DNA of 8,235 nucleotides from a virus. Lineage: Duplodnaviria > Heunggongvirae > Uroviricota > Caudoviricetes. A program made the translations under genes and the position numbers. This document shows positions 1 through 8,148 of this stretch, one piece after another. Under the pieces are notes generated by a model that saw only the letters and a program-made list of their open reading frames with translations, made no database searches and had not been told where the DNA came from. Position 1 is the first letter of the stretch, and every line of letters starts with the position of its first letter. The DNA lies in IMG/VR virus record IMGVR_UViG_2651869696_000011. One strand, written 5' to 3'.

Positions 1-1
1 G

Positions 2-478
2 AAGCAGAAAAAGCTTATTATGCTTCCATCGGAAACGATGATCTGGCAGCCTGAGTTCACAGATAAAACACTCTCCAGGAAACCCGGGGCGGTTCAGGCC
101 GCCGGTCGTTATATTCGTTCGCATGAAGCCGTTCAGCACATCAGCATCCGCGACCGGCTGAATGATTTTATGCAGCAGCACGGCACAGTACTGGCGGCCG
201 CACTGGCACCGGAGCTGATGGGCTACAGTGAGCTGACGGCCATTGCCCGAAACTGTGCCATACAGCGTGCCACAGATGCCCTGCGTGAAGCCCTCCTGTC
301 CTGGCTTGCGAAGGGTGAAAAAATTAATTATTCCGCACAGGATAGCGACATTTTAACGGCCATTGGATTCAGACCTGACGCGGCTTCGGTGGATGACAGC
401 CGTGAAAAATTCACCCCTGCGCAGAACATGATTTTTTCGCGTAAAAGTGCGCAACTGGCATCACGTCAGTCTGTGTAA
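2..478 (+). CDS. psu: Psu-like polarity-suppression / capsid-decoration protein, C-terminal ~158 aa; 5' end lies outside the window
   Basis: Reading frame is open from the window edge (no stop between position 2 and the first ATG at 20), stop at 476-478. It is immediately upstream of, and transcribed toward, the cos site, as psu is in P4. Identity is inferred from context and recalled similarity to P4 Psu, not from an alignment. Confidence 0.55.
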   Translation, partial: KQKKLIMLPSETMIWQPEFTDKTLSRKPGAVQAAGRYIRSHEAVQHISIRDRLNDFMQQHGTVLAAALAPELMGYSELTAIARNCAIQRATDALREALLSWLAKGEKINYSAQDSDILTAIGFRPDAASVDDSREKFTPAQNMIFSRKSAQLASRQSV

Positions 479-642: not shown

Positions 643-661
643 GGCGAGGCGGGGAAAGCAC
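643..661. other. P2/P4-type cos cohesive-end sequence (cosN)
   Basis: Exact 19-nt string ggcgaggcggggaaagcac, which I recall as the cohesive-end sequence shared by P2, 186 and P4. It lies between the psu-like gene and the integrase-proximal cargo, as in P4. Confidence 0.6.
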
Positions 662-724
662 TGCGCGCCCGGTTGGTGCTCGTTACTAATGTTTTTTGCG
701 CCCGAGCACCGTCGGGAAGGGGCT

Positions 725-733
725 GGGGGGGGG
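725..733. repeat. G9 homopolymer inside a G-rich run (711-750: ggg, gggg, ggggggggg, gggg)
   Basis: Read directly from the sequence; the tract spacing fits a canonical G-quadruplex motif. Intergenic. Confidence 0.5.
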
Positions 734-896: not shown

Positions 897-925
897 TTGT
901 TCTGTTAATATATCCGTTAATATAG
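897..925 (+). promoter_or_regulatory. Putative promoter and tandem 9-bp direct repeat upstream of the cargo operon
   Basis: gttaatata repeated at 904-912 and 916-924 (12-bp register); ttgttc (897-902) and atatag (920-925) are a possible -35/-10 pair with a 17-nt spacer. Lies in the AT-rich leader about 35 nt before the start codon at 959. Weak, sequence-only call. Confidence 0.25.
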
Positions 926-958
926 ATAGATTGATCCAATTGAGTTTAAGGAATGAGT

Positions 959-1342
959 ATGTTTCAGATATCAGCTGGAGTGTTCTTTGATTTAGATAAA
1001 ATAGAAAAACACGATGGCACATTTGTTTTTTATTCAAATGTTGATGTGTCTTTCTCGGTGGAAAACACCTCCCCTCTTTTTAAAGCAAATAAAATAAGTC
1101 ATGATGGTATAAACTGTTATGTGGTAAACTATACTCTCCTGACCGAAAAACCAGAACGAATTGAAGCTGGAGTCGTAGTTAGGGCTGGTGATGAGGATTA
1201 TAGGCAACAATTTATTTTATTATGGGAATTCTATTTTGATTGTGTGGCTAGAGTAGAAAAAGAATCGGTTAAAAAATATGTGCATTATCAAATTTTAATA
1301 AACATCACTCAAAAATTGCGCTTGAAGTTGCCCCATATTTAG
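959..1342 (+). CDS. Hypothetical protein (127 aa), first gene of the AT-rich cargo operon
   Basis: ORF 953-1342; the second in-frame ATG at 959 has a good SD (aagga at 947-951, 7-nt spacer), whereas the ATG at 953 is too close to it. AT-rich codon usage. No family recognised. Confidence 0.6.
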   Translation: MFQISAGVFFDLDKIEKHDGTFVFYSNVDVSFSVENTSPLFKANKISHDGINCYVVNYTLLTEKPERIEAGVVVRAGDEDYRQQFILLWEFYFDCVARVEKESVKKYVHYQILINITQKLRLKLPHI

Positions 1343-2661
1343 TGGAGATTAACCGAAGAGTTTCATTTGATGATGTCTCTGGGTTTTCTGCTTTTATTAA
1401 AGATGTAGTGAATCTAAATAGATCTGCCTTTAAATCTTTAATGGCAGCGTTAAAAATAATTAGTGATTCAAAAGAATCATTGTCAACCAACTTTGACCTG
1501 ACTTATTCCATGTTAGTCTATGCCTTGGAGTCTTTGTCTCAAAGAAATGATAACTATAAGTCTGATTGGGATGACTACGATCAAAAAACCAGAGGTGAAT
1601 TAGAGTCTGTATTTGAGCATATGCCTGGTGAGGATGTTTGTAAAATTAAATCAATACTTATTGAAGGCAAACAATTCAGATTACAAAAAAGGTTCAAAGA
1701 TTTTATACTGAAAAATCTTGAAGAAAATTATTTCAATGAAACAGAGAGATATCCAATCCGCTATAGCTTCCTTAGTAGAGCTTTAGATAATTTATACAAA
1801 ATCAGGTCTTCTTTTGTCCATGAGCTTAAGCCACTTGATGCAATGATCTCGAAAGCCTACAATCCTGTTGGTGATTGTCTGGTTCTTTTTGGCGAACCTC
1901 ACTTCAGTTACTCTGGATTGCTTCGACTTCTTCGCCATGTGATAATAAATTTTTGCCGTAAAAACTACAGTCAAAAAAGAGAGTATGTTAATTGGGTGAT
2001 GGAAACATCGGGTGTAATGGTTGCAGAGATATCTGCACAATATTGGCTCTGGAATGCAGACGGATTTACAGCTAAAAGTATAGCGAAGTGGTTTAGTGAA
2101 TACCTAAATATGTTAAATTTAGGCGAAGTCACTGATTTGCAGTCTATCATGGACAAAATTGAGATAATCTATGACCAATCCAAAAAAGAATATAAAAATG
2201 GGTTGTTGTATTTTTATTTCTTATATAACTTAATGCATAATGGAAATAAGGGTGAATGGCTTGAGTTTGCGAACAAGCGAAGTTCTATACTTGTTTGTGA
2301 TATATATTGGTATTCATGCTCTCCATATTTATATAAATCATTTACTAATGTTTCAAATGGTATTGCTGATATAAAAACATTGAGAAACTTTTTGTCTTGT
2401 TTTAACGAATATGATAAAAATAAATTTAAGCCAAATCGTTTAAATCTCCCTGCAATGACCGAAGTAATTATGTTGGCTTGCGCAGCAAATTCATTCTTCA
2501 GAATTGGAATGTATCAAGACTATGTTTTAATGGGCAATAGAGCGATGAGAGAAATTGCTTCAGTAAAAGATGTATTTTATTATATAAAAGAACGATTAAG
2601 TAATTCACAACTTATTGAATTGGACGAGTGCTTGAGATTGTATAGAAAAAAGGGGGGCTAA
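1342..2661 (+). CDS. Hypothetical protein (439 aa), second gene of the cargo operon; contains an Rx4H (HEPN-like) motif
   Basis: Long uninterrupted ORF with AT-rich codon usage. The only possible start before the first internal ATG (1441) is GTG at 1342, which overlaps the upstream stop (TAGTG) and has no clear SD, so the start is uncertain. The motif R-SSFV-H is at codons 155-160 (nt 1804-1821). Confidence 0.8.
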   Translation: MEINRRVSFDDVSGFSAFIKDVVNLNRSAFKSLMAALKIISDSKESLSTNFDLTYSMLVYALESLSQRNDNYKSDWDDYDQKTRGELESVFEHMPGEDVCKIKSILIEGKQFRLQKRFKDFILKNLEENYFNETERYPIRYSFLSRALDNLYKIRSSFVHELKPLDAMISKAYNPVGDCLVLFGEPHFSYSGLLRLLRHVIINFCRKNYSQKREYVNWVMETSGVMVAEISAQYWLWNADGFTAKSIAKWFSEYLNMLNLGEVTDLQSIMDKIEIIYDQSKKEYKNGLLYFYFLYNLMHNGNKGEWLEFANKRSSILVCDIYWYSCSPYLYKSFTNVSNGIADIKTLRNFLSCFNEYDKNKFKPNRLNLPAMTEVIMLACAANSFFRIGMYQDYVLMGNRAMREIASVKDVFYYIKERLSNSQLIELDECLRLYRKKGG

Positions 2662-2669
2662 CCCCTTTT
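2648..2669. terminator. Putative bidirectional terminator at the convergent junction of the cargo gene and the integrase
   Basis: 8-bp stem aaaagggg (2648-2655) / cccctttt (2662-2669) with the 6-nt loop ggctaa, A-tract on one side and ttttatttttaa on the other. Both stop codons (2659-2661 plus strand, 2658-2660 minus strand) lie in or beside the loop. Confidence 0.4.
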
Positions 2670-3854
2670 ATTTTTAACGTATTCACCCCACCAATCCATC
2701 AATTCAATTCGCTGCACGAGATAAGTAGAACGATTGTATGCTTTTCTAACTTCATTTTTATCACTGTGGGCTAAGGCAGACTCGATAACATCAGGATTTA
2801 ATCCAGCTTCATTCATGGCTGTACTTGCTATTGAACGTAATCCATGGGCAACTAATTTTCCGCCAAAACCAATACGTTTTAAAGCTGCATTTGCAGTCTG
2901 ACTGTTCATTGGTTTCTTTGGGTCATTCCGACTCGGAAAAACATATTCACGATGAGCACTAATAGGCTTCATCACATTAAGAATCTCTAATGCCTGAGAT
3001 GATAGAGGAATTATGTGTTCCCGTTTAGCCTTCATCCGTTCGGCAGGAATCGTCCAGAGCTTTGCATGAAGATCGATTTCTTCCCACCGAGTACTGGAGG
3101 CTTCAGAAGGGCGCACAAGAGTCAGGAGTTGCCATTCAATTAGACAGCGAGTCGGGATAGACAGATTTGACATGACTAAAGAACGCATCAGCTTTGGTAA
3201 TTCTTCAGGTCGAAGCGTCGGCATGTTTTGTTTTTTTGGCTTTTCGAAGGCCATGCCAACACCTGATGCTGGGTTTGCATCAATCAAGCCAGTGTTAACC
3301 GCATAAATCATTATTTCGTTAATGCGTTGCACCAGACGACGTACAGTCTCTAATGCCCCACGAGCTTTGACTGGCTCAAGTGCTTCGACCAATGTTCTAG
3401 CTTTGATCTGCTGAACGGGCATCTCACCAACGGCGGGGAATACATCTTTTTCCAATGAGCGCCAAATATCTTTTGCATAATCAGGGGTAACACTTTTGCT
3501 TTTGAGCTGAAACCAATTAGCGGCGACCGTCGAGAAAATACTGTCCTGTGCGATTTGCTGCTGTTCCTCTGCAATTTCAGCTTGAATTTGCGGGTCAATT
3601 CCGTTGGCTAACAAGGAAAGGTAATCCGCTCTTAAGCGTCGGGCGTCAGCAAGTGAAAGGGCTGGGAAGGCTCCTAGCCCCATCATTGTCCGTTGCTTTG
3701 TTGCCGGACGTTGATAACGGAAACGCCATAACTTCTTACCGTTCGTTTTAACGAGTAGAAAAAGACCATCGCCATCATGCAACGTTAGATCCTTTTCTAA
3801 CGCTTTAGCGCGCAGTACTTCTGTGTTGGTCAGGGGGCGTGTCGTTCTTGCCAA
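2658..3854 (-). CDS. int: P4-family tyrosine integrase (CP4-57 IntA-like), 398 aa
   Basis: N-terminus MARTTRPLT...DGDGLFLLV...LWRFRYQRP and C-terminal HGLRSIAST...ALAH...VRKAYNRSTYLVQR are characteristic of P4-type integrases. Its 5' end faces the ssrA-derived att core, the usual tRNA/tmRNA-int arrangement. Confidence 0.9.
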   Translation of the reverse strand: MARTTRPLTNTEVLRAKALEKDLTLHDGDGLFLLVKTNGKKLWRFRYQRPATKQRTMMGLGAFPALSLADARRLRADYLSLLANGIDPQIQAEIAEEQQQIAQDSIFSTVAANWFQLKSKSVTPDYAKDIWRSLEKDVFPAVGEMPVQQIKARTLVEALEPVKARGALETVRRLVQRINEIMIYAVNTGLIDANPASGVGMAFEKPKKQNMPTLRPEELPKLMRSLVMSNLSIPTRCLIEWQLLTLVRPSEASSTRWEEIDLHAKLWTIPAERMKAKREHIIPLSSQALEILNVMKPISAHREYVFPSRNDPKKPMNSQTANAALKRIGFGGKLVAHGLRSIASTAMNEAGLNPDVIESALAHSDKNEVRKAYNRSTYLVQRIELMDWWGEYVKNKRG

Positions 3855-3935: not shown

Positions 3936-3973
3936 GATTTAGCTGGATATCCTCGGACAACGGTAGACACAAA

Positions 3974-4005
3974 AAAGCCCGCAGAGCTTGTGCTATGCGG
4001 GCTTT
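3974..4005 (-). terminator. Rho-independent terminator (minus-strand sense) downstream of the tmRNA 3'-end copy
   Basis: Stem agcccgca (3976-3983) / tgcgggct (3996-4003) with a 12-nt loop; on the minus strand it is followed by a run of six T (complement of aaaaaa at 3971-3976). Confidence 0.5.
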
Positions 4006-4038
4006 CAGGATTTCTCCGGACGTATCCGGAAGAGCAAG

Positions 4039-4065
4039 TGGTGGAGCTGGCGGGAGTTGAACCCG
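4039..4065 (-). other. Attachment-site core: 27-nt copy of the ssrA (tmRNA) 3' end without the rest of the gene
   Basis: tggtggagctggcgggagttgaacccg is the reverse complement of the tmRNA 3' terminus (...CGGGUUCAACUCCCGCCAGCUCCACCA). The match breaks off at 4066 and the sequence to the right is an AT-rich protein-coding gene, so this is a partial att repeat, not a functional ssrA. Confidence 0.7.
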
Positions 4066-4103
4066 TGTCTGAAAAATATTAACCTGTTGTTTTAATTATA
4101 TAT

Positions 4104-4883
4104 TTATCTGAACATGGCGTTTGCGGCGCTTTTGCGTATCTTCTCTAGACCTTTTGTAGTCCATTTCTCTGGTACAGGTGTAAACCGTAGTGCAAAATCT
4201 GCCTCCATATTATCACCACTGAAACGTGCCACTCCACGTTCCAATTTTGTTTGCCAAGTGACTTTTTTAGTTTTACCCTCTATATCTTGATATTCAATAA
4301 TTAATTTTGGACCAGTGAATGATGAAGAACCGACTAATTTAAGTCTATGTGAAAGATATGCTATATTCAATAGAATATCAATTGCCGCGGTTGGTACAAA
4401 AATGTTTTTTGACTTCTTATCTATACTATATGGTAACGAAAAATCAATATCGTAAGGTGTCGATAAAGTATTGTACATATATACTTTTCTTTCTTTTATT
4501 ATTTTGAATATTCCATACTGGGAGTCGGTTGTAAAAGATTTATCTTCTTTTTTGAATTTTTTCGAAAACAACTCTAAATATAGATTTATGTTTTTTTTAT
4601 AATTAAAATCCCAATGATATCTAAGTGAAATTGCCGCCCCCAATCCTATGTTTGAAAATTTTGTTTGTGGAAGCGTAGGGGCTTGTAAGATATCAACATG
4701 AAAACCGTTGAAATCGTTAACATTCATCTTGATATTTAAAGTGTCTATCACTAAATTGGGTTTATAAGAGAGCCTTCTTTGAAATATCGTTAACCATATT
4801 GCATATAATGCAGCAATTGCTGAAATGAAAGTACCAACTGAAGATATGTAGGTGATTAGTTTGTCGAATGTAATTGTAATCAA
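4104..4883 (-). CDS. Hypothetical membrane-anchored protein (259 aa), a moron between integrase and att
   Basis: Strongly AT-rich ORF with a predicted N-terminal transmembrane helix (ITYISSVGTFISAIAALYAIWLTIF). The only start upstream of the first internal Met (codon 53) is TTG at 4881-4883, preceded by GGGGA at a 7-nt spacing. No family recognised. Confidence 0.65.
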   Translation of the reverse strand: MITITFDKLITYISSVGTFISAIAALYAIWLTIFQRRLSYKPNLVIDTLNIKMNVNDFNGFHVDILQAPTLPQTKFSNIGLGAAISLRYHWDFNYKKNINLYLELFSKKFKKEDKSFTTDSQYGIFKIIKERKVYMYNTLSTPYDIDFSLPYSIDKKSKNIFVPTAAIDILLNIAYLSHRLKLVGSSSFTGPKLIIEYQDIEGKTKKVTWQTKLERGVARFSGDNMEADFALRFTPVPEKWTTKGLEKIRKSAANAMFR

Positions 4884-4924: not shown

Positions 4925-6097
4925 TTAATTATGATTATGCAAATGATTTATCGATGTAAAGTTATCATACTCTTTAAGATACGAACCATAGTGCCTGAAA
5001 AGCATCTCCGGCCCTTTATGCCCCATTTGAGCTGCAAGCCAAAACAGGTTTGCTCCTCGGCTGATATGGCTGGTGGCGAATGTATGCCTGGTTTGATATG
5101 GGTTTCTGTAACGAATACCTGCTTTTCGCAATGTTGGCACCCATGCTTTTTTCCTAATTGCATCAGCACTTGCCCAAGGCTTATTGGTCTTTGGATCTTC
5201 AAAGACAGTAGCATCCTTCATGAATGTAAATGGCTTCTGATTTATCAGCGCCAACATTGCCTCTTCTGTCAGTTCAACTTTCCGAGTACCTGCTTTTGTC
5301 TTTGTCCCTTTGATAACACCGACAACACTTGCGCTCTGGACATGGGCAGTTTTTCCAACAAAGTCGATATCACGCCATCGAAGGGCACATAATTCAGAAC
5401 TACGCAGGCCTGTATGTATAGCGAACCGGAACAGATTTTCCCATTGTTTGTTTCCGGCTGCTGCTAGTAATGCATCAACTTCTGCTGGTGATAGCGGATC
5501 AACTACGTAGCTGCTTTCTGCTTCTGACTTATCACTTTGGTAGCGCGAAGCTGTTACTAACGATACGGGGTTAATTTGAAGTACCCCATCGGTCACGGCT
5601 TCATCAAGTGCTGACCGCAGGAAAGATAACTGGTTGCGAATGGTTTTTAAGGTCGTTTTCTGGCTTTGAATCCACGCTTTCAGGGTTGCTGGTGTTAATT
5701 CACTTGCAGGGCAAATGTGAAGTGAGGCTAACGCACTACGGCATTTTTTATAACCACCGATCGTGGATGGTGAAAGTTTCCTCGTTTCGCAGATTTCAAG
5801 GTATTCGTCCAGGTACATTTTTACCGTTTTGCCTGCAGCAGCATTACCAAAAATTTTCAAACGAGCAGAACGGGGAAAATATTCCGCATAAATGAATGTT
5901 CCCCTTTCGATCTTATTATGAATTTCGCCGAGTGTGCGCTCAGCGTATTTAATGTTCTTTGGTGTTACTTCCAGATTGGAAAGAGGCTCACGACATTTAA
6001 CTCCTTTGTAGGTGAAAGTTATATTGATCGTTTCGCCCTGGCGGTGTTTCCTGATTGTTACGCCGCGCGGTAGTTTGAGCAGTTTTGTCTGGCCCAT
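4925..6097 (-). CDS. int: Tyrosine integrase (390 aa)
   Basis: C-terminal catalytic region carries the recombinase residues (TGLRSSE; RHTFATSH; MGHKGPEMLFRHYGSY). ATG at 6095-6097 is preceded by gtgagg. Its 5' end overlaps the 3' end of the excisionase gene by 40 nt. Confidence 0.9.
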   Translation of the reverse strand: MGQTKLLKLPRGVTIRKHRQGETINITFTYKGVKCREPLSNLEVTPKNIKYAERTLGEIHNKIERGTFIYAEYFPRSARLKIFGNAAAGKTVKMYLDEYLEICETRKLSPSTIGGYKKCRSALASLHICPASELTPATLKAWIQSQKTTLKTIRNQLSFLRSALDEAVTDGVLQINPVSLVTASRYQSDKSEAESSYVVDPLSPAEVDALLAAAGNKQWENLFRFAIHTGLRSSELCALRWRDIDFVGKTAHVQSASVVGVIKGTKTKAGTRKVELTEEAMLALINQKPFTFMKDATVFEDPKTNKPWASADAIRKKAWVPTLRKAGIRYRNPYQTRHTFATSHISRGANLFWLAAQMGHKGPEMLFRHYGSYLKEYDNFTSINHLHNHN

Positions 6098-6264
6098 TTT
6101 GCAACCTCACTAAGATCAATCCACCTCTCCTTAACGCCTTCAACCTTTAAAACCTGAACACCTTCACGCCAAACACCGCGCTGTACACGTTTGTTTATTG
6201 CTTCAGGAGTTTCGCCAGTTTCTTTGCAATAAGTTGAGATTGGAACACAATCGAGGTTCAGCAT
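6058..6264 (-). CDS. xis: Excisionase (Xis-like, 68 aa)
   Basis: Small basic protein immediately upstream of and overlapping the integrase, the lambda-like int/xis arrangement. The ORF track starts at GTG 6276, but the ATG at 6262-6264 has a better SD (ggaga, 5-nt spacer). Confidence 0.65.
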   Translation of the reverse strand: MLNLDCVPISTYCKETGETPEAINKRVQRGVWREGVQVLKVEGVKERWIDLSEVAKWARQNCSNYRAA

Positions 6265-6323
6265 ATGTTTCTCCACTTAGCCCGCTGCACACGGGCAGTA
6301 ATATCAAATTCCAGTCCTGATAA

Positions 6324-6539
6324 TTAATTTTGTTCCCTGGTTGCTACCTGTTTTATTGGCCTGATGCTGTCCAGTAGCAGACGGCGACGCATGTTAGGTG
6401 CACCCCAACGGTAACCAGTCTTTTTGTCGTAGGATTCACAACGTCCGGCAACCCAGGACGTTTCAGTGGAATGTAATTTCATCCGCTTTTCACCGTCTCG
6501 GGTGATAACAATTCCTGTATGAGTTTTTATCACGCTCAT
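6324..6539 (-). CDS. Hypothetical prophage protein (71 aa)
   Basis: Its ATG overlaps the upstream gene's stop (ATGA at 6536-6539), indicating translational coupling. No family recognised. Confidence 0.5.
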   Translation of the reverse strand: MSVIKTHTGIVITRDGEKRMKLHSTETSWVAGRCESYDKKTGYRWGAPNMRRRLLLDSIRPIKQVATREQN

Positions 6540-6898
6540 TTCTTAGTCTCCGGTGCTTTCGGTATTACTGCCCAGTGAGTAATATTGACGTTTTCAAGGT
6601 CCCCGACTTGAAATGTCCACTGCCATTCTCCGGTTTCTTTTTGCCCCCATGTGTACCAGAGAGAACGCCAGCCAATCAGCCAGCCTTCTCCGTTAGCATC
6701 AAATAACAGAACACTTTCATTTGCTGGCGGCAGTTCAGCTGACACTGGTATTACTTTGTTTTCCAGTGCTGCACATTTAGCTTCAAGCGCATCAAATTTA
6801 CGCACCAGGTATTCAGCATCCGTTTCATTCACTTTCAGATCTCGCGGTACACATTTCCCGCGCAGAAACCCTTCCATTTCGAAAACATTCATGCGCAT
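6536..6898 (-). CDS. DUF551-like phage protein (120 aa; YfdS-like)
   Basis: Trp-rich C-terminal segment (GWLIGWRSLWYTWGQ...ITHWAVIPKAPE) resembles the DUF551 signature found in lambdoid prophage early regions. Its start ATG (6896-6898) lies 7 nt inside the upstream HD gene (ATGCGCATGA). Confidence 0.55.
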   Translation of the reverse strand: MRMNVFEMEGFLRGKCVPRDLKVNETDAEYLVRKFDALEAKCAALENKVIPVSAELPPANESVLLFDANGEGWLIGWRSLWYTWGQKETGEWQWTFQVGDLENVNITHWAVIPKAPETKK

Positions 6899-7425
6899 TT
6901 GTGTAACTCCGATAATTCGTTAAAGCGTTCCATAAACATCCCGTAGGCATGGCCTGGAGCCAGTGGAATCACGTTGAATATCTCTGTTGCCGGGATACCT
7001 TCCAGCACAGGCCAGAAAGAGCCATCATCAAGCCCGAGATCGCGGCGTTCGGTTGCCAGCATGATGAGATCGGCATATTTCACGGGTGTACTCATAACCG
7101 GGGGTAACCCGTATTTCTCACGGATTACGGCGTCTATTTTTTCTTCCATCCGTTTATAGTCAGGAAGAAGGCGTTTCAGTGGTGCGGGGATGTCCTGGCA
7201 ATACGCTTCTGTTGCATCATGCATTAACGCTTCAAAAGCAAACTCCTGCGGTACCAGCTGGCTGCAAAGCACCGCATGTTGGGCGACGCTGTAGAAGTGT
7301 GAAAGATGACCAGCAAAGCGACAGATATTTGAAAGGGAAACCGCGATATCGTTAATAACGATGTCGTCTTTATTTATCTTGTCATAATAAAAATGCTTCC
7401 CGGAAAAAGTTTTAATAAATGACAT
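6889..7425 (-). CDS. yfdR: HD-domain phosphohydrolase, YfdR-like (178 aa)
   Basis: H...HD motif (RFAGH, SVAQH, MHDATEAY) typical of HD-superfamily enzymes. The ORF track begins at TTG 7506, but the ATG at 7423-7425 (MSFIKTF...) has a strong SD (gtggaga, 5-nt spacer) and gives the recalled 178-aa length of E. coli CPS-53 YfdR. Symbol is from memory, not a search. Confidence 0.7.
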   Translation of the reverse strand: MSFIKTFSGKHFYYDKINKDDIVINDIAVSLSNICRFAGHLSHFYSVAQHAVLCSQLVPQEFAFEALMHDATEAYCQDIPAPLKRLLPDYKRMEEKIDAVIREKYGLPPVMSTPVKYADLIMLATERRDLGLDDGSFWPVLEGIPATEIFNVIPLAPGHAYGMFMERFNELSELHKCA

Positions 7426-7545
7426 TTCGTTCTCCACTTTATATGCGCTGCACTGCGCTGAATTTTGGGAAAAGGAAGCCCTCGCCATCCGGCGATTATT
7501 AAGCAATTACGTTTCAATAGATGCCCCCGCAGGGGCGGTTAGTTT

Positions 7546-7740
7546 CTCCACAAAACAGAGAAGAACACCTGCGGTGACCGCCGCCCGGATGGATTGGGTT
7601 ATGAGCCCGTCGTCCGGTGATGCTCTTCTCTGTTTTGTAAAAAGAGCGGTACCAGCCGGAAGCAAGGGTACAAACTGGTACCGCCAGGACTACACACAGC
7701 ATAAAGTTGTGGTGCCGGGTGCCTCCCGGTGCCTGGCGAA
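7546..7740. other. GC-rich structured non-coding region (candidate ncRNA or cis-regulatory element)
   Basis: 15-bp inverted repeat acaaaacagagaaga (7550-7564) / tcttctctgttttgt (7624-7638) enclosing 59 nt. Perfect 10-bp hairpin gcggtaccag (7646-7655) / ctggtaccgc (7675-7684) with a 19-nt loop. Three ggtgcc direct repeats (7711-7733). The region is open in several frames on both strands with no RBS-supported ORF, which is typical of GC-rich non-coding DNA. Confidence 0.4.
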
Positions 7741-7938
7741 GGTTGCACACCAGACGGGTGGGTATCCACAGAAGGTCGACTGTCAGCCTCAACCTTAACC
7801 CGCGTGCGCTGAGCCGCATTCACCACAACGCTAAGGATTCTCTTTGGTTGAAAATACTTAGCTGTTATGTGCCTGTCTTTTCACCACTTCAGGCTCGGTG
7901 GTATCCTTTTAAGCCCGTATACATAAAAGGAAAATCAA

Positions 7939-8148
7939 ATGACTTTTGATGAAAAAGAACTTGATAATGCAATTAATAAAATCATCGTAACGTCGCTCTT
8001 TTCCTGTCTCAGCGACACTCAGCAGAAACAGTTCTACGAATCGGCTTTCAACATGATCGAGCGTTGTTGTTTCTGCGATGCCGACGAGTTACCTGAAAAA
8101 ATCAGGAAACAGTTGGCTGATGCTCTTCGAGTGCGACTTTCTGGGTGA
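7939..8148 (+). CDS. Hypothetical protein (69 aa), divergent from the int-xis operon
   Basis: ATG at 7939 preceded by aagga (7927-7931) with a 7-nt spacer. No family recognised. Confidence 0.5.
   Translation: MTFDEKELDNAINKIIVTSLFSCLSDTQQKQFYESAFNMIERCCFCDADELPEKIRKQLADALRVRLSG

Follow-up and report, generated by a model that had tools for sequence, protein, structure and literature searches.

Proteins of the HEPN superfamily share an alpha-helical fold and an Rx4-6H motif and have metal-independent RNase activity (Anantharaman et al. 2013). Among those described in phage defence, ApeA is a single-protein system of ~570-580 aa that resides in E. coli mobile-element hotspots. Its NTD (residues 1-198) and Mid domain (199-309) precede a HEPN domain (335-583), and the catalytic R502/R521 lie near the C-terminus (Gao et al. 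2020; Juozapaitis et al. 2026, 10.64898/2026.01.26.701840; Drobysheva et al. 2026, 10.64898/2026.03.20.713152). DARNA, an abortive tRNA anticodon nuclease of 456 aa, carries its HEPN domain (R117/H122) at the N-terminus, ahead of an ssDNA-binding, Pds5-like C-domain (Puteikiene et al. 2026, 10.64898/2026.02.22.705581). Other HEPN proteins, such as HepT/MNT, AbiV, the C-terminal HEPN of AbiA and the HEPN of Csm6, are either small, free-standing toxins paired with antitoxins or domains within RT or CRISPR proteins.

P4-like satellites carry interchangeable cargo of foreign composition in a slot near cos, and P4 gop-beta-cII, PARIS, TIR-NLR and RT-nitrilase are examples with demonstrated phenotypes. 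Rousset et al. 2022 (Cell Host Microbe 30:740, PMC9122126) list in their Table S1A HEPN_Apea entries at P4 loci, as well as NC_010468/WP_000486482 as P4 hotspot cargo. The latter protein, from E. coli ATCC 8739, was cloned by these authors as the single-gene system 'HEPN-TPR' (pFR83), which appears in Table S2B among the 'additional tested systems' and not among the validated systems of Table S2A. HEPN-TPR was not one of the systems that protected against their panel of lambda, T4, P1, 186cIts, CLB_P2, LF82_P8, AL505_P2 and T7. This test was weak, being limited to eight phages and a native promoter with expression not checked; the authors themselves consider the panel too small, and one PARIS homologue scored only after induction (PMC9122126). 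DefensePredictor (2026) subsequently placed the protein in Table S5 as a 'Predicted novel defense gene' with a mean log-odds of 7.09, and in later work 6 of 8 tested P4 hotspot cargo of unknown function proved defensive.

Here we analyse a stretch of 8,235 nt of viral DNA (IMG/VR record IMGVR_UViG_2651869696_000011), referred to as the window. An original prediction, made from the letters of the window, read positions 953-2661 as a two-gene operon between cos and int of a P4-like satellite and as a candidate undescribed anti-phage system. We find that the location was read correctly, and that the operon is a single, frameshifted gene whose intact product is the protein of pFR83.

Results

A foreign cargo in the hotspot of a P4-like satellite

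The P4 backbone claimed for the element, consisting of a psu-like gene, an exact cos sequence and a P4-type integrase, was found in all three parts (Table 1). The cos 19-mer had no match in 200 shuffles. The psu fragment covers positions 59-181 of the 182 positions of the Psu profile in Pfam and is cut off at the contig start, where an IS3-family element is located in closed sister assemblies; in loci L016/L017 an rve transposase lies directly upstream of it. In ATCC 8739 the satellite backbone is complete, with alpha primase, an Icd-like gene, delta and psu. As for the proposed link to ssrA, a 36-nt att fragment was recovered, but ARAGORN detected no tRNA or tmRNA gene in the window, where ssrA is represented by this att fragment only. 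The fragment forms the junction with the next integrated element, and the match of the window to ATCC 8739 stops inside ssrA.

The low GC content ascribed to the cargo was borne out, at 0.31-0.35 for the AT-rich block as a whole and 0.28-0.40 over about 900-2700, versus 0.50-0.59 upstream and 0.44-0.49 in the integrase. The slot is variable: with the same flanks, related E. coli satellites carry other cargo between psu/cos and int, such as DUF262+HEPN, nSTAND1/AAA/RloB, NACHT, AAA+methylase (Dam) and a DarT1-associated NADAR antitoxin family protein. Positions 953-2661 are a cargo of foreign composition that occupies the hotspot between psu/cos and int in an ssrA-integrated P4-like satellite, as had been proposed from hotspot position and composition.

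Table 1. Features of the satellite and its cargo gene in the window
Feature	Position	Strand	Basis
3' part of psu (polarity suppression/capsid decoration gene of P4)	20-478	+	Pfam PF07455 Psu, E 3.9e-62
P2/P4 cos site, exact 19-mer GGCGAGGCGGGGAAAGCAC	643-661	+	1 exact match
Tandem 12-nt direct repeat TC[TC]GTTAATATA, 2 copies, in AT-rich leader	901-924	+	Repeat search
ORF1, 129/127 aa	953/959-1342	+	ORF list
Native codons 1-106, N-terminal alpha/beta domain	959-1276	+	RefSeq and homologue starts, AF2 model
A6 run, frameshift site (A7 in intact alleles)	1271-1276	+	Alignment to ATCC 8739
Out-of-frame ORF1 tail of 21 aberrant residues, stop TAG 1340-1342	1277-1342	+	ORF list and translation
ORF2, 439 aa, GTG start, intact residues 129-567 (HEPN and TPR-like)	1342-2661	+	ORF list and translation
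Central HEPN domain, intact residues ~137-335	1366-1962	+	
Predicted catalytic Rx4H motif RSSFVH, R283...H288 of the 567-aa protein	1804-1821	+	Homologue alignment
C-terminal TPR-like helical-repeat domain, residues ~346-567	1993-2658	+	
GC-rich hairpin with flanking A/T runs	2648-2669	.	Terminator scan and RNA fold
P4-type tyrosine integrase, 398 aa	2658-3854	-	Pfam Arm-DNA-bind_3, Phage_int_M, Phage_integrase
ssrA (tmRNA) 3'-terminal fragment, 36 nt, att repeat	4039-4074	-	Rfam tmRNA partial match, 18 bits; sequence comparison

One gene, broken by a frameshift

The two co-oriented ORFs of the predicted operon (127 and 439 aa) are present, but they are halves of one gene. In ATCC 8739 the region is a single 569-codon ORF, 99.7% identical in DNA to the window. 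The sole frame-breaking difference is A7 versus A6, and the alleles otherwise differ by one amino-acid substitution (S/Y at window 1985). Across 5,426 complete E. coli genomes, each of the 19 full-length copies is 1 nt longer than the window copy and is annotated as one hypothetical protein. Nearly all of 70 homologues from a word-index search are 560-584 aa long. Among 1.84 billion representatives, a family profile search found 1,180 clusters with E<=1e-3, of which 468 reached E<=1e-30, and nearly every one of the best 150 of the 1,180 matches profile positions 1 to ~565 in one polypeptide. The N-terminal residues are conserved along with the rest of the protein in a 38-sequence alignment. 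Since ATCC 8739, 19 of 19 E. coli copies and almost all of the best 150 relatives have one ORF, we conclude that 953-2661 is one 567-codon gene, split where an A7 run has lost a single A.

The intact product is the 567-aa RefSeq protein WP_000486482.1. Its gene starts at ATG 959, with AAGGA 6 nt upstream, and ATG 953 is an upstream alternative; the RefSeq protein and its homologues begin M-F/L-Q-I-S. In the window allele the native 22-residue interdomain linker is lost, and the TAG that ends the aberrant tail of ORF1 shares one base with the ORF2 GTG. The product of ORF2 is identical to WP_249399475.1, a RefSeq entry with several GenBank accessions.

The A6 run is a real, clonal -1 frameshift. 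It is not a sequencing error, because six independent assemblies, which come from four or more separate accessions or projects, share the identical A6 allele; among them are a 5.3-Mb contig and a Logan raw-read assembly. By locus, the run is A6 in the window and in L016-L021, and A7 in L001, L004 and L005. Satellites of the A6 lineage have an IS3-family element inserted in psu and an IS21-type element upstream. A7 is the longest homopolymer in the cargo gene, and independent linker frameshifts lie within the same 70 nt in three diverged alleles: the window; L003, which has the same A7 to A6 change in an allele ~91% identical to that of the window; and L004, which has a G deletion 47 nt downstream. 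Further copies are inactivated by IS1 (H39), by 5' truncation (H45) or by a transposase (the truncated copy in L023). The window copy is most likely non-functional, a pseudogene in a decaying satellite.

A central HEPN domain between two further domains

Neither protein had been recognised in the original prediction, yet the larger half holds a HEPN domain and a putative TPR-like domain. The intact protein opens with an alpha/beta domain of approximately residues 1-110, for which the AF2 model has strands at 15-63 and helices at 78-108, followed by a linker with pLDDT <50 at residues 111-118. The central domain is HEPN by its fold and its conserved Rx4H motif. RSSFVH or a variant of it occupies the corresponding position of 68 of 70 homologues, and the 38-sequence alignment shows no variation at R283, S284 or H288, the pattern being R-S-x-[FY]-[VA]-H. 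The C-terminal TPR-like domain is presumed to be a sensor or oligomerisation domain.

Profile searches returned one weak domain match and assigned no family or system. The match, to the Cas13-ApeA domain of PADLOC, covers profile positions 17-133 of 187 (E 7.4e-6, 23.9 bits); no PADLOC system profile matched besides this domain, hits to MTase_I and CSD_V being at noise level. Pfam HEPN_Apea (PF18739) did not match the cargo protein itself; it gave sub-threshold matches in 8 of 38 relatives (best E 0.0032) and none in 10 more distant ones. Pfam, NCBIfam and PHROGs yielded no usable family for either ORF or for the merged protein, and PDB sequence searches with the protein and the 38-sequence profile found nothing at E<=10.

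Relation to described systems

The cargo protein resembles ApeA in being a single-protein HEPN system of similar length and setting, and its HEPN domain has an Apea-like flavour, with the helix-1 motif [WY]xALESL. Unlike that of ApeA, its HEPN domain is central (R283 of 567), with an unrelated domain of ~110 aa before it and the TPR-like domain of ~220 aa after it. Searched with hmmsearch, residues 1-400 of the Ec1-4 and Pa1 ApeA proteins gave negative bit scores against the family profile. Membership in ApeA was rejected on the different architecture and the lack of N-terminal homology, which places the cargo protein outside the ApeA family as a distant HEPN protein of Apea-like type. DARNA offers a different likeness, being one polypeptide with a HEPN nuclease and a large alpha-helical, repeat-like, non-catalytic domain, which in DARNA senses the trigger; it has no N-terminal alpha/beta domain, unlike the cargo protein. 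Membership in DARNA was rejected on domain order, length, and the absence of a PADLOC or PDB sequence match. In contrast to HepT/MNT-type toxins and Abi proteins, the cargo HEPN is flanked by an extra domain on each side and lacks a partner gene. Although gop-beta-cII, PARIS, TIR-NLR and RT-nitrilase occupy the same slot, their proteins are unrelated to it.

HEPN-TPR of pFR83 is the same protein (MFQISAGVFF...), encoded by a single gene in the same psu-int hotspot; it represents the intact allele, and the window carries the A6 frameshifted allele with one substitution. The claim that the system is undescribed therefore falls: the cargo protein had already been catalogued, cloned and predicted to be defensive. 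The pFR83 clone is the one published test that our searches turned up; WP_000486482 is absent from the set cloned for DefensePredictor, and neither 'HEPN-TPR' nor the accession was found in the main texts of the literature. The P4 systems Crouga, Bandua, Aernus, Toga, Reve and Hailong of 2026 were set aside as unlike the cargo protein by description, and comparison by description with the six named, validated P4 loci of unknown function in 10.64898/2026.02.27.708500 gave no match.

Family spread and neighbourhoods

The family with this N-domain/HEPN/TPR-like arrangement comprises at least 468 clusters at 50% identity, distributed over Proteobacteria, Firmicutes, Actinobacteria and Cyanobacteria, and is without a Pfam or PADLOC model. 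A Pectobacterium relative occupies the same slot of a P4-like satellite, a Vibrio relative adjoins Gabija and IS elements, an Aeromonas relative adjoins SIR2+HerA in an integrase island, a Klebsiella relative lies at a prophage end, and others are found on Bacillus plasmids. No conserved partner gene, antitoxins included, was found in the Klebsiella, Vibrio, Aeromonas and Pectobacterium contexts.

Several apparent resemblances were discarded during this comparison. The Aeromonas homologue has a 259-aa gene downstream of it that is unrelated to the 259-aa ORF at window 4104-4883. Two candidate split forms were also dropped: P0066, apparently short at its N-terminus, is a gene-calling artefact with the full ORF open in L022, and P0060 is a transposase-truncated copy.

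Leader and terminator

The AT-rich leader does contain the direct repeats noted originally. A weak sigma-70-like promoter (TTGTTC, 17 nt, TAATAT), seen by eye and below the scan threshold, overlaps the repeat; the promoter scan gave no plus-strand site upstream of 953 at that threshold. The hairpin said to be common to the cargo and the convergent integrase is likewise present. It spans the overlapping stop codons of the two genes, has T/U runs on both strands, folds with an MFE of -14.4 kcal/mol (z -2.7) on the plus strand and -10.4 kcal/mol (z -1.9) on the minus strand, and resembles a bidirectional intrinsic terminator. An overlap of the int stop with the cargo-gene stop is also seen in Pectobacterium.

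Discussion

Taken as a whole, the locus is very probably a single HEPN cargo gene that is frameshifted here and whose intact form would act in an RNase-type defence. For the intact form, the most plausible prediction is a role against phages or in abortive infection. It is favoured by a HEPN domain with an invariant Rx4H motif, by relatives that adjoin Gabija or SIR2+HerA or lie within other mobile elements, and by the machine-learning prediction of defence; against it, the clone was not among the protecting systems. The original prediction had held that a well-expressed clone with no phage phenotype would refute such a role, and pFR83 goes part of the way towards being that clone, in a weak test. 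We predict that the intact protein is most likely a phage-triggered RNase of the abortive-infection type.

By analogy with ApeA, DARNA, AbiV and PrrC/RloC, the intact protein would dimerise via its HEPN domain and so form a composite RNase site, kept inactive until the TPR-like domain, the N-terminal domain or both recognise a trigger. This trigger could be a phage-derived protein, nucleic acid or small ligand. The released enzyme would cleave tRNA or other RNA, translation would halt, and phage replication would stop through abortive infection or growth arrest. In such gating of an RNase by a ligand or trigger, the protein would likely follow the logic of ApeA. In the window lineage, the change from A7 to A6 breaks the frame in the flexible linker after the N-terminal domain, leaving a 127-aa N-terminal fragment and a GTG-initiated HEPN-TPR fragment of 439 aa. 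Some activity of the window allele may persist, given the overlap of stop and GTG and a -1 slip that restores the wild-type protein.

The split itself invites other readings. In a true two-gene system, the 127-aa N-domain and the 439-aa HEPN-TPR protein would be made separately, coupled through TAGTG, and would reassemble or regulate each other. Such a system would accord with a break in a low-confidence linker, with the overlap of the ORF1 stop and the ORF2 GTG, with the independent origin of linker frameshifts in three diverged alleles and with the persistence of the split allele in at least six assemblies. We nevertheless consider it improbable: none of the 19 full-length complete-genome copies has this layout, and the best 150 representatives are almost all single polypeptides; no convincing Shine-Dalgarno is seen by eye before the ORF2 GTG, and ORF1 ends in 21 aberrant residues. 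Moreover, A7 as the longest homopolymer in the gene is an expected mutational hotspot, the gene has also been inactivated in other ways (in H39, H45 and L023), and the surrounding satellite is itself degraded by IS elements. The A-run might instead allow phase-variable or programmed expression, as a contingency tract or through -1 slippage of the ribosome or of transcription, so that a toxic abortive-infection gene is turned on and off or held at a very low level. HEPN toxins are costly to their host, and an off-switch would for that reason be advantageous; the same A7 to A6 change is found in two diverged alleles, and a -1 slip on GTT AAA AAA T restores, by eye, exactly the wild-type V-K-K-I-C-A. 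The tract, however, is not conserved, being A8 in Klebsiella, GAAAAAGA in Pectobacterium and CAGAAGA in Vibrio, and a conserved slippery tract was rejected with the A-run kept only among close enterobacterial alleles. A6-A7 is also short for efficient slippage, the heptamer departs from the canonical X XXY YYZ site, no stimulatory structure is evident, and every assembly of the window lineage has A6, giving no hint of switching, which together render regulated slippage very improbable. Finally, a homopolymer miscall in an intact gene is almost certainly not the explanation. A 1-nt homopolymer difference is a classic error type and the window is a short draft contig, but the identical A6 recurs across the six assemblies, among them the independent Logan assembly, and RefSeq carries the 439-aa product.

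A separate question is whether the intact protein is anti-phage at all. Other possibilities are a HEPN toxin or addiction module stabilising the satellite, a part in P4-P2 satellite-helper interference or in RNA processing, and a HEPN domain that is not catalytic. That pFR83 is not among the systems protecting against eight phages (Rousset et al. 2022), that no homologue is validated, and that PADLOC system profiles are unmatched apart from one weak domain match all point this way. Against these stand a predicted catalytic Rx4H motif that is invariant across very distant relatives, the lack of a conserved antitoxin partner, and the recurrence of the family in defence islands and mobile-element slots of Vibrio, Aeromonas, Klebsiella, Pectobacterium and Bacillus plasmids. 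The small panel, the PARIS homologue that needed induction, and the success of 6 of 8 tested unknown P4 hotspot cargo argue in the same direction, and we regard a function outside phage defence as unlikely. The opposite extreme is that this is a real single-protein anti-phage RNase family with its own trigger sensing, missed only through the small panel, in which the linker frameshifts (two A7 to A6, one G deletion) were selected as a reversible off-switch or a functional split and are not plain decay; we give this bolder proposal a slim chance. The favoured reading remains a single HEPN gene with an RNase-type defence role when intact, in a copy that has decayed.

These results show how a compact 'two-gene AT-rich operon' can arise from one homopolymer frameshift, and that one close relative settles the question. 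Together with the IS1-disrupted and truncated copies, the broken copy in the window is a small example of the inactivation of defence cargo, which a 2026 survey found to be rare in P4 satellites. The locus is a further entry in the well-documented P4 psu-int defence hotspot. If validated, the intact protein would add one more architecture to the trigger-gated HEPN RNases (ApeA, DARNA, Tha, AbiV), a useful, incremental extension of that group.

Satellite backbone and the cargo locus

The window is identical in sequence to the 8,235-bp draft contig JHSV01000108.1 (assembly GCA_001266155.1). It carries the P4 backbone claimed in the original prediction, with a psu fragment, an exact cos and a P4-type integrase, and the cargo lies between psu/cos and int, the right place for a P4-like satellite hotspot. 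The low GC of the cargo block was borne out by measurement, as were the direct repeats in its leader and the terminal hairpin shared with the integrase. The proposed ssrA link held in part: the att repeat is present, but the ssrA match is confined to that fragment.

Features of the window and predicted domains of the intact cargo protein
Feature	Position	Strand	Details
psu fragment	20-478		Pfam Psu, E 3.9e-62
P2/P4 cos	643-661		exact 19-nt sequence
G-run	719-726		just 3' of cos, intergenic; one G more than ATCC 8739; second homopolymer-length polymorphism
Low-GC block	about 900-2700		GC 0.28-0.40 vs 0.50-0.59 upstream
Tandem 12-nt repeat	901-924		
Two co-oriented ORFs	953/959-1342 and 1342-2661		ORF listing
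Hairpin	2648-2669		spans overlapping stop codons of cargo gene and integrase
P4-type integrase	2658-3854	-	
IsrM sRNA (Rfam), weak partial match	3971-4078	-	31 bits vs gathering score 376; overlaps att/tmRNA fragment; probably not meaningful
3' tmRNA fragment	4039-4074		36 nt; att repeat
Second AT-rich ORF	4104-4883	-	259 aa; GC about 0.30; N-terminal hydrophobic helix
CPS-53/KpLE1-like element	4925-8148		integrase, yfdR-like protein, DUF551 protein
Integrase of second element	4925-6097		beyond ssrA fragment
yfdR-like HD-domain 5'-deoxynucleotidase	6889-7506		
STnc100 sRNA (Rfam), sub-threshold	7637-7851	-	42.1 bits vs gathering score 47; E 1.2e-6; full model length
N-terminal domain	residues about 1-110		beta-rich; AlphaFold2 model
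Central domain	residues 137-335		helical; AlphaFold2 model
C-terminal domain	residues 346-567		helical-repeat; AlphaFold2 model

One gene split by a frameshift

The cargo had been read as a two-gene operon, a reading overturned by comparison with intact relatives. The same satellite, 99.7% identical to the window's, sits at ssrA in E. coli ATCC 8739; our own ORF listing shows one open frame of 569 codons across the interval there, and the annotation gives one hypothetical protein of 567 aa (WP_000486482.1). The sole frame-breaking difference in the alignment is an A-run, GTT AAAAAAA TAT (A7) in ATCC 8739 versus A6 in the window (1271-1276). Among complete E. coli genomes the gene is carried by 20 of 5,426, and all 19 full-length copies cover 1,802 nt where the query has 1,801 nt, each with a single-protein annotation. 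IS1 interrupts one of the 19 (NZ_CP144926.1), and the twentieth copy is 5'-truncated (NZ_AP018395.1); each adds an independent inactivation of the cargo gene. Nearly all of 70 homologues from a word-index search are 560-584 aa long. In a profile search of 1.84 billion representatives, 1,180 clusters passed E<=1e-3 and 468 passed E<=1e-30; of the best 150 matches, almost all run as one chain along profile positions 1 to about 565. Conservation in the alignment takes in N-terminal residues (Q3, N27 and others) together with the rest of the protein. Judged from sequence, the start is almost certainly ATG 959, with AAGGA 6 nt upstream and homologues beginning M-[FL]-Q-I-S; hence the 127 aa first given for ORF1. 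We conclude from these comparisons that the two ORFs are one gene split by a frameshift.

The A6 frameshift is real and clonal. Six assemblies from several projects share it, among them a 5.3-Mb contig and one assembled independently from raw reads, and RefSeq lists its 439-aa product as WP_249399475.1. The frame is lost after residue 106, which eliminates a 22-residue linker; within the linker, AlphaFold2 confidence is lowest at residues 111-118. A tail of 21 aberrant residues is added to ORF1, whose TAG stop overlaps the GTG taken by gene callers as the start of ORF2. Two more diverged alleles split within the same 70-nt stretch, one (L003, about 91% identical) by the identical A7 to A6 change and the other (L004, about 86% identical) by loss of a G 47 nt downstream of the A-run. 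Although A7 is the longest homopolymer of the E. coli gene, the run differs in Klebsiella (A8), Pectobacterium and Vibrio; we accordingly interpret the site as a mutational hotspot, not as a selected switch. Two seemingly short relatives were rejected as further split forms, one being a gene-calling artefact and the other a transposase truncation. Separately, nearly all 24 members of a Salmonella enterica cluster (about 91% identical) are 'partial' proteins (364-455 aa) that stop at the edge of a contig, which suggests a repeat or IS insertion inside the gene in many Salmonella assemblies.

In closed assemblies of the window lineage, psu is interrupted by an IS3-family element, which accounts for the contig's start within psu, and closed or longer assemblies have an IS21-type element further upstream of the sid/delta genes (window 1-20, L016 3501-4714, L017 1-888); the satellite is thus decaying. 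The window copy has also lost the covalent link between its N-terminal domain and HEPN-TPR; it is most likely inactive. A -1 slip on GTT AAA AAA T would recreate the wild-type sequence, but low-level wild-type product from this allele is less likely than inactivity, as is a functional split pair.

The intact protein and its contexts

The original prediction recognized neither product, and searches of Pfam, NCBIfam and PHROGs indeed returned no family; a HEPN motif and a predicted TPR-like domain were nevertheless found. PADLOC gave one weak domain match (Cas13-ApeA, E 7.4e-6, residues 150-275). Of 70 homologues, 68 have the motif R-S-x-[FY]-[VA]-H at the equivalent position; an alignment of 38 sequences, 8 of which match Pfam HEPN_Apea below threshold, shows no variation at R283, S284 and H288. 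An AlphaFold2 model built from this alignment (mean pLDDT 85.6) has three domains. Motif, weak profile matches and model together indicate a predicted N-domain/HEPN/TPR-like architecture.

In Pectobacterium brasiliense the gene fills the corresponding slot in a P4-like satellite at smpB/ssrA, its stop again overlapping the integrase stop. Elsewhere it adjoins Gabija genes, IS elements and a trypsin-STAND protein (Vibrio navarrensis), lies in an integrase-bounded island adjoining SIR2+HerA (Aeromonas media) or sits at one end of a prophage (Klebsiella); Bacillus thuringiensis and Paenibacillus plasmids carry distant full-length relatives. No neighbour gene is conserved among these contexts, and the cargo gene is therefore a single-gene unit. 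Other E. coli strains hold different cargo between the same psu/int flanks (DUF262+HEPN, nSTAND/AAA/RloB, NACHT, AAA+methylase, a DarT1-associated NADAR antitoxin family protein), which confirms the hotspot and the slot's variability.

Beyond the satellite, the CPS-53/KpLE1-like element is integrated in tandem at the duplicated ssrA 3' end. Between the att site and its integrase, the second AT-rich ORF matches phrog_7259 (unknown function, E 2e-85) and nothing in Pfam, NCBIfam or PADLOC; a 1-nt T deletion at 4591 shortens it to 124 aa in three sister assemblies (L016, L017, L019). This ORF may represent a moron or a defence candidate carried beside the integrase of the neighbouring prophage.

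Prior testing and candidate function

The locus and protein, thought undescribed, are already in the literature as a candidate tested without phenotype. The study that defined the psu-int hotspot (Rousset et al. 2022, PMC9122126) lists 'NC_010468 hypothetical WP_000486482' in Table S1A and, in Table S2B, the one-gene P4-locus plasmid pFR83, 'HEPN-TPR', from E. coli ATCC 8739; its insert begins in the psu 3' end and encodes a protein identical to the merged ORF. The paper reserves Table S2A for validated systems and S2B for 'additional tested systems', which places the gene among those that were tested but did not score. In that study, protection against one or more of eight phages (lambda, T4, P1, 186cIts, CLB_P2, LF82_P8, AL505_P2, T7) was seen with 7 of 19 P4 constructs; the authors cautioned that the panel was small, and one PARIS homologue scored only once induced. 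The location is right and an anti-phage role plausible, but the clone did not score against those eight phages. DefensePredictor (PMC13092281) flags WP_000486482.1 as 'Predicted novel defense gene' (Table S5, mean log-odds 7.09), and the accession is absent from its tables of cloned systems. A 2026 P4/P2-hotspot preprint (10.64898/2026.02.27.708500) tested eight P4 loci of unknown function; by description, none of the six named loci that protected fits the cargo protein.

ApeA, the nearest named system, is likewise one HEPN protein of about this size; it also occurs in P4 hotspots and has the same helix-1 motif [WY]xALESL. A ligand pocket gates its tRNA anticodon nuclease activity (10.64898/2026.01.26.701840; 10.64898/2026.03.20.713152). 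However, ApeA is ordered NTD-Mid-HEPN with catalytic Arg 502/521, whereas the cargo protein's HEPN is central and followed by the TPR-like domain. Against the first 400 residues of five validated ApeA proteins the family profile gave no similarity, and no match to Pfam HEPN_Apea is above threshold. We therefore did not file it as ApeA. DARNA (N-terminal HEPN plus helical sensor domain) follows a comparable logic with another domain order and an unlike sequence.

On the model of ApeA, DARNA, AbiV and PrrC/RloC, the intact protein would probably form dimers through HEPN, creating a composite RNase site that stays inactive until the TPR-like and/or N-terminal domain senses a trigger derived from the phage. 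Once active, it would cleave tRNA or other RNA, leading to translation arrest. The cargo protein family has no Pfam or PADLOC model, and its defence function is a candidate one.
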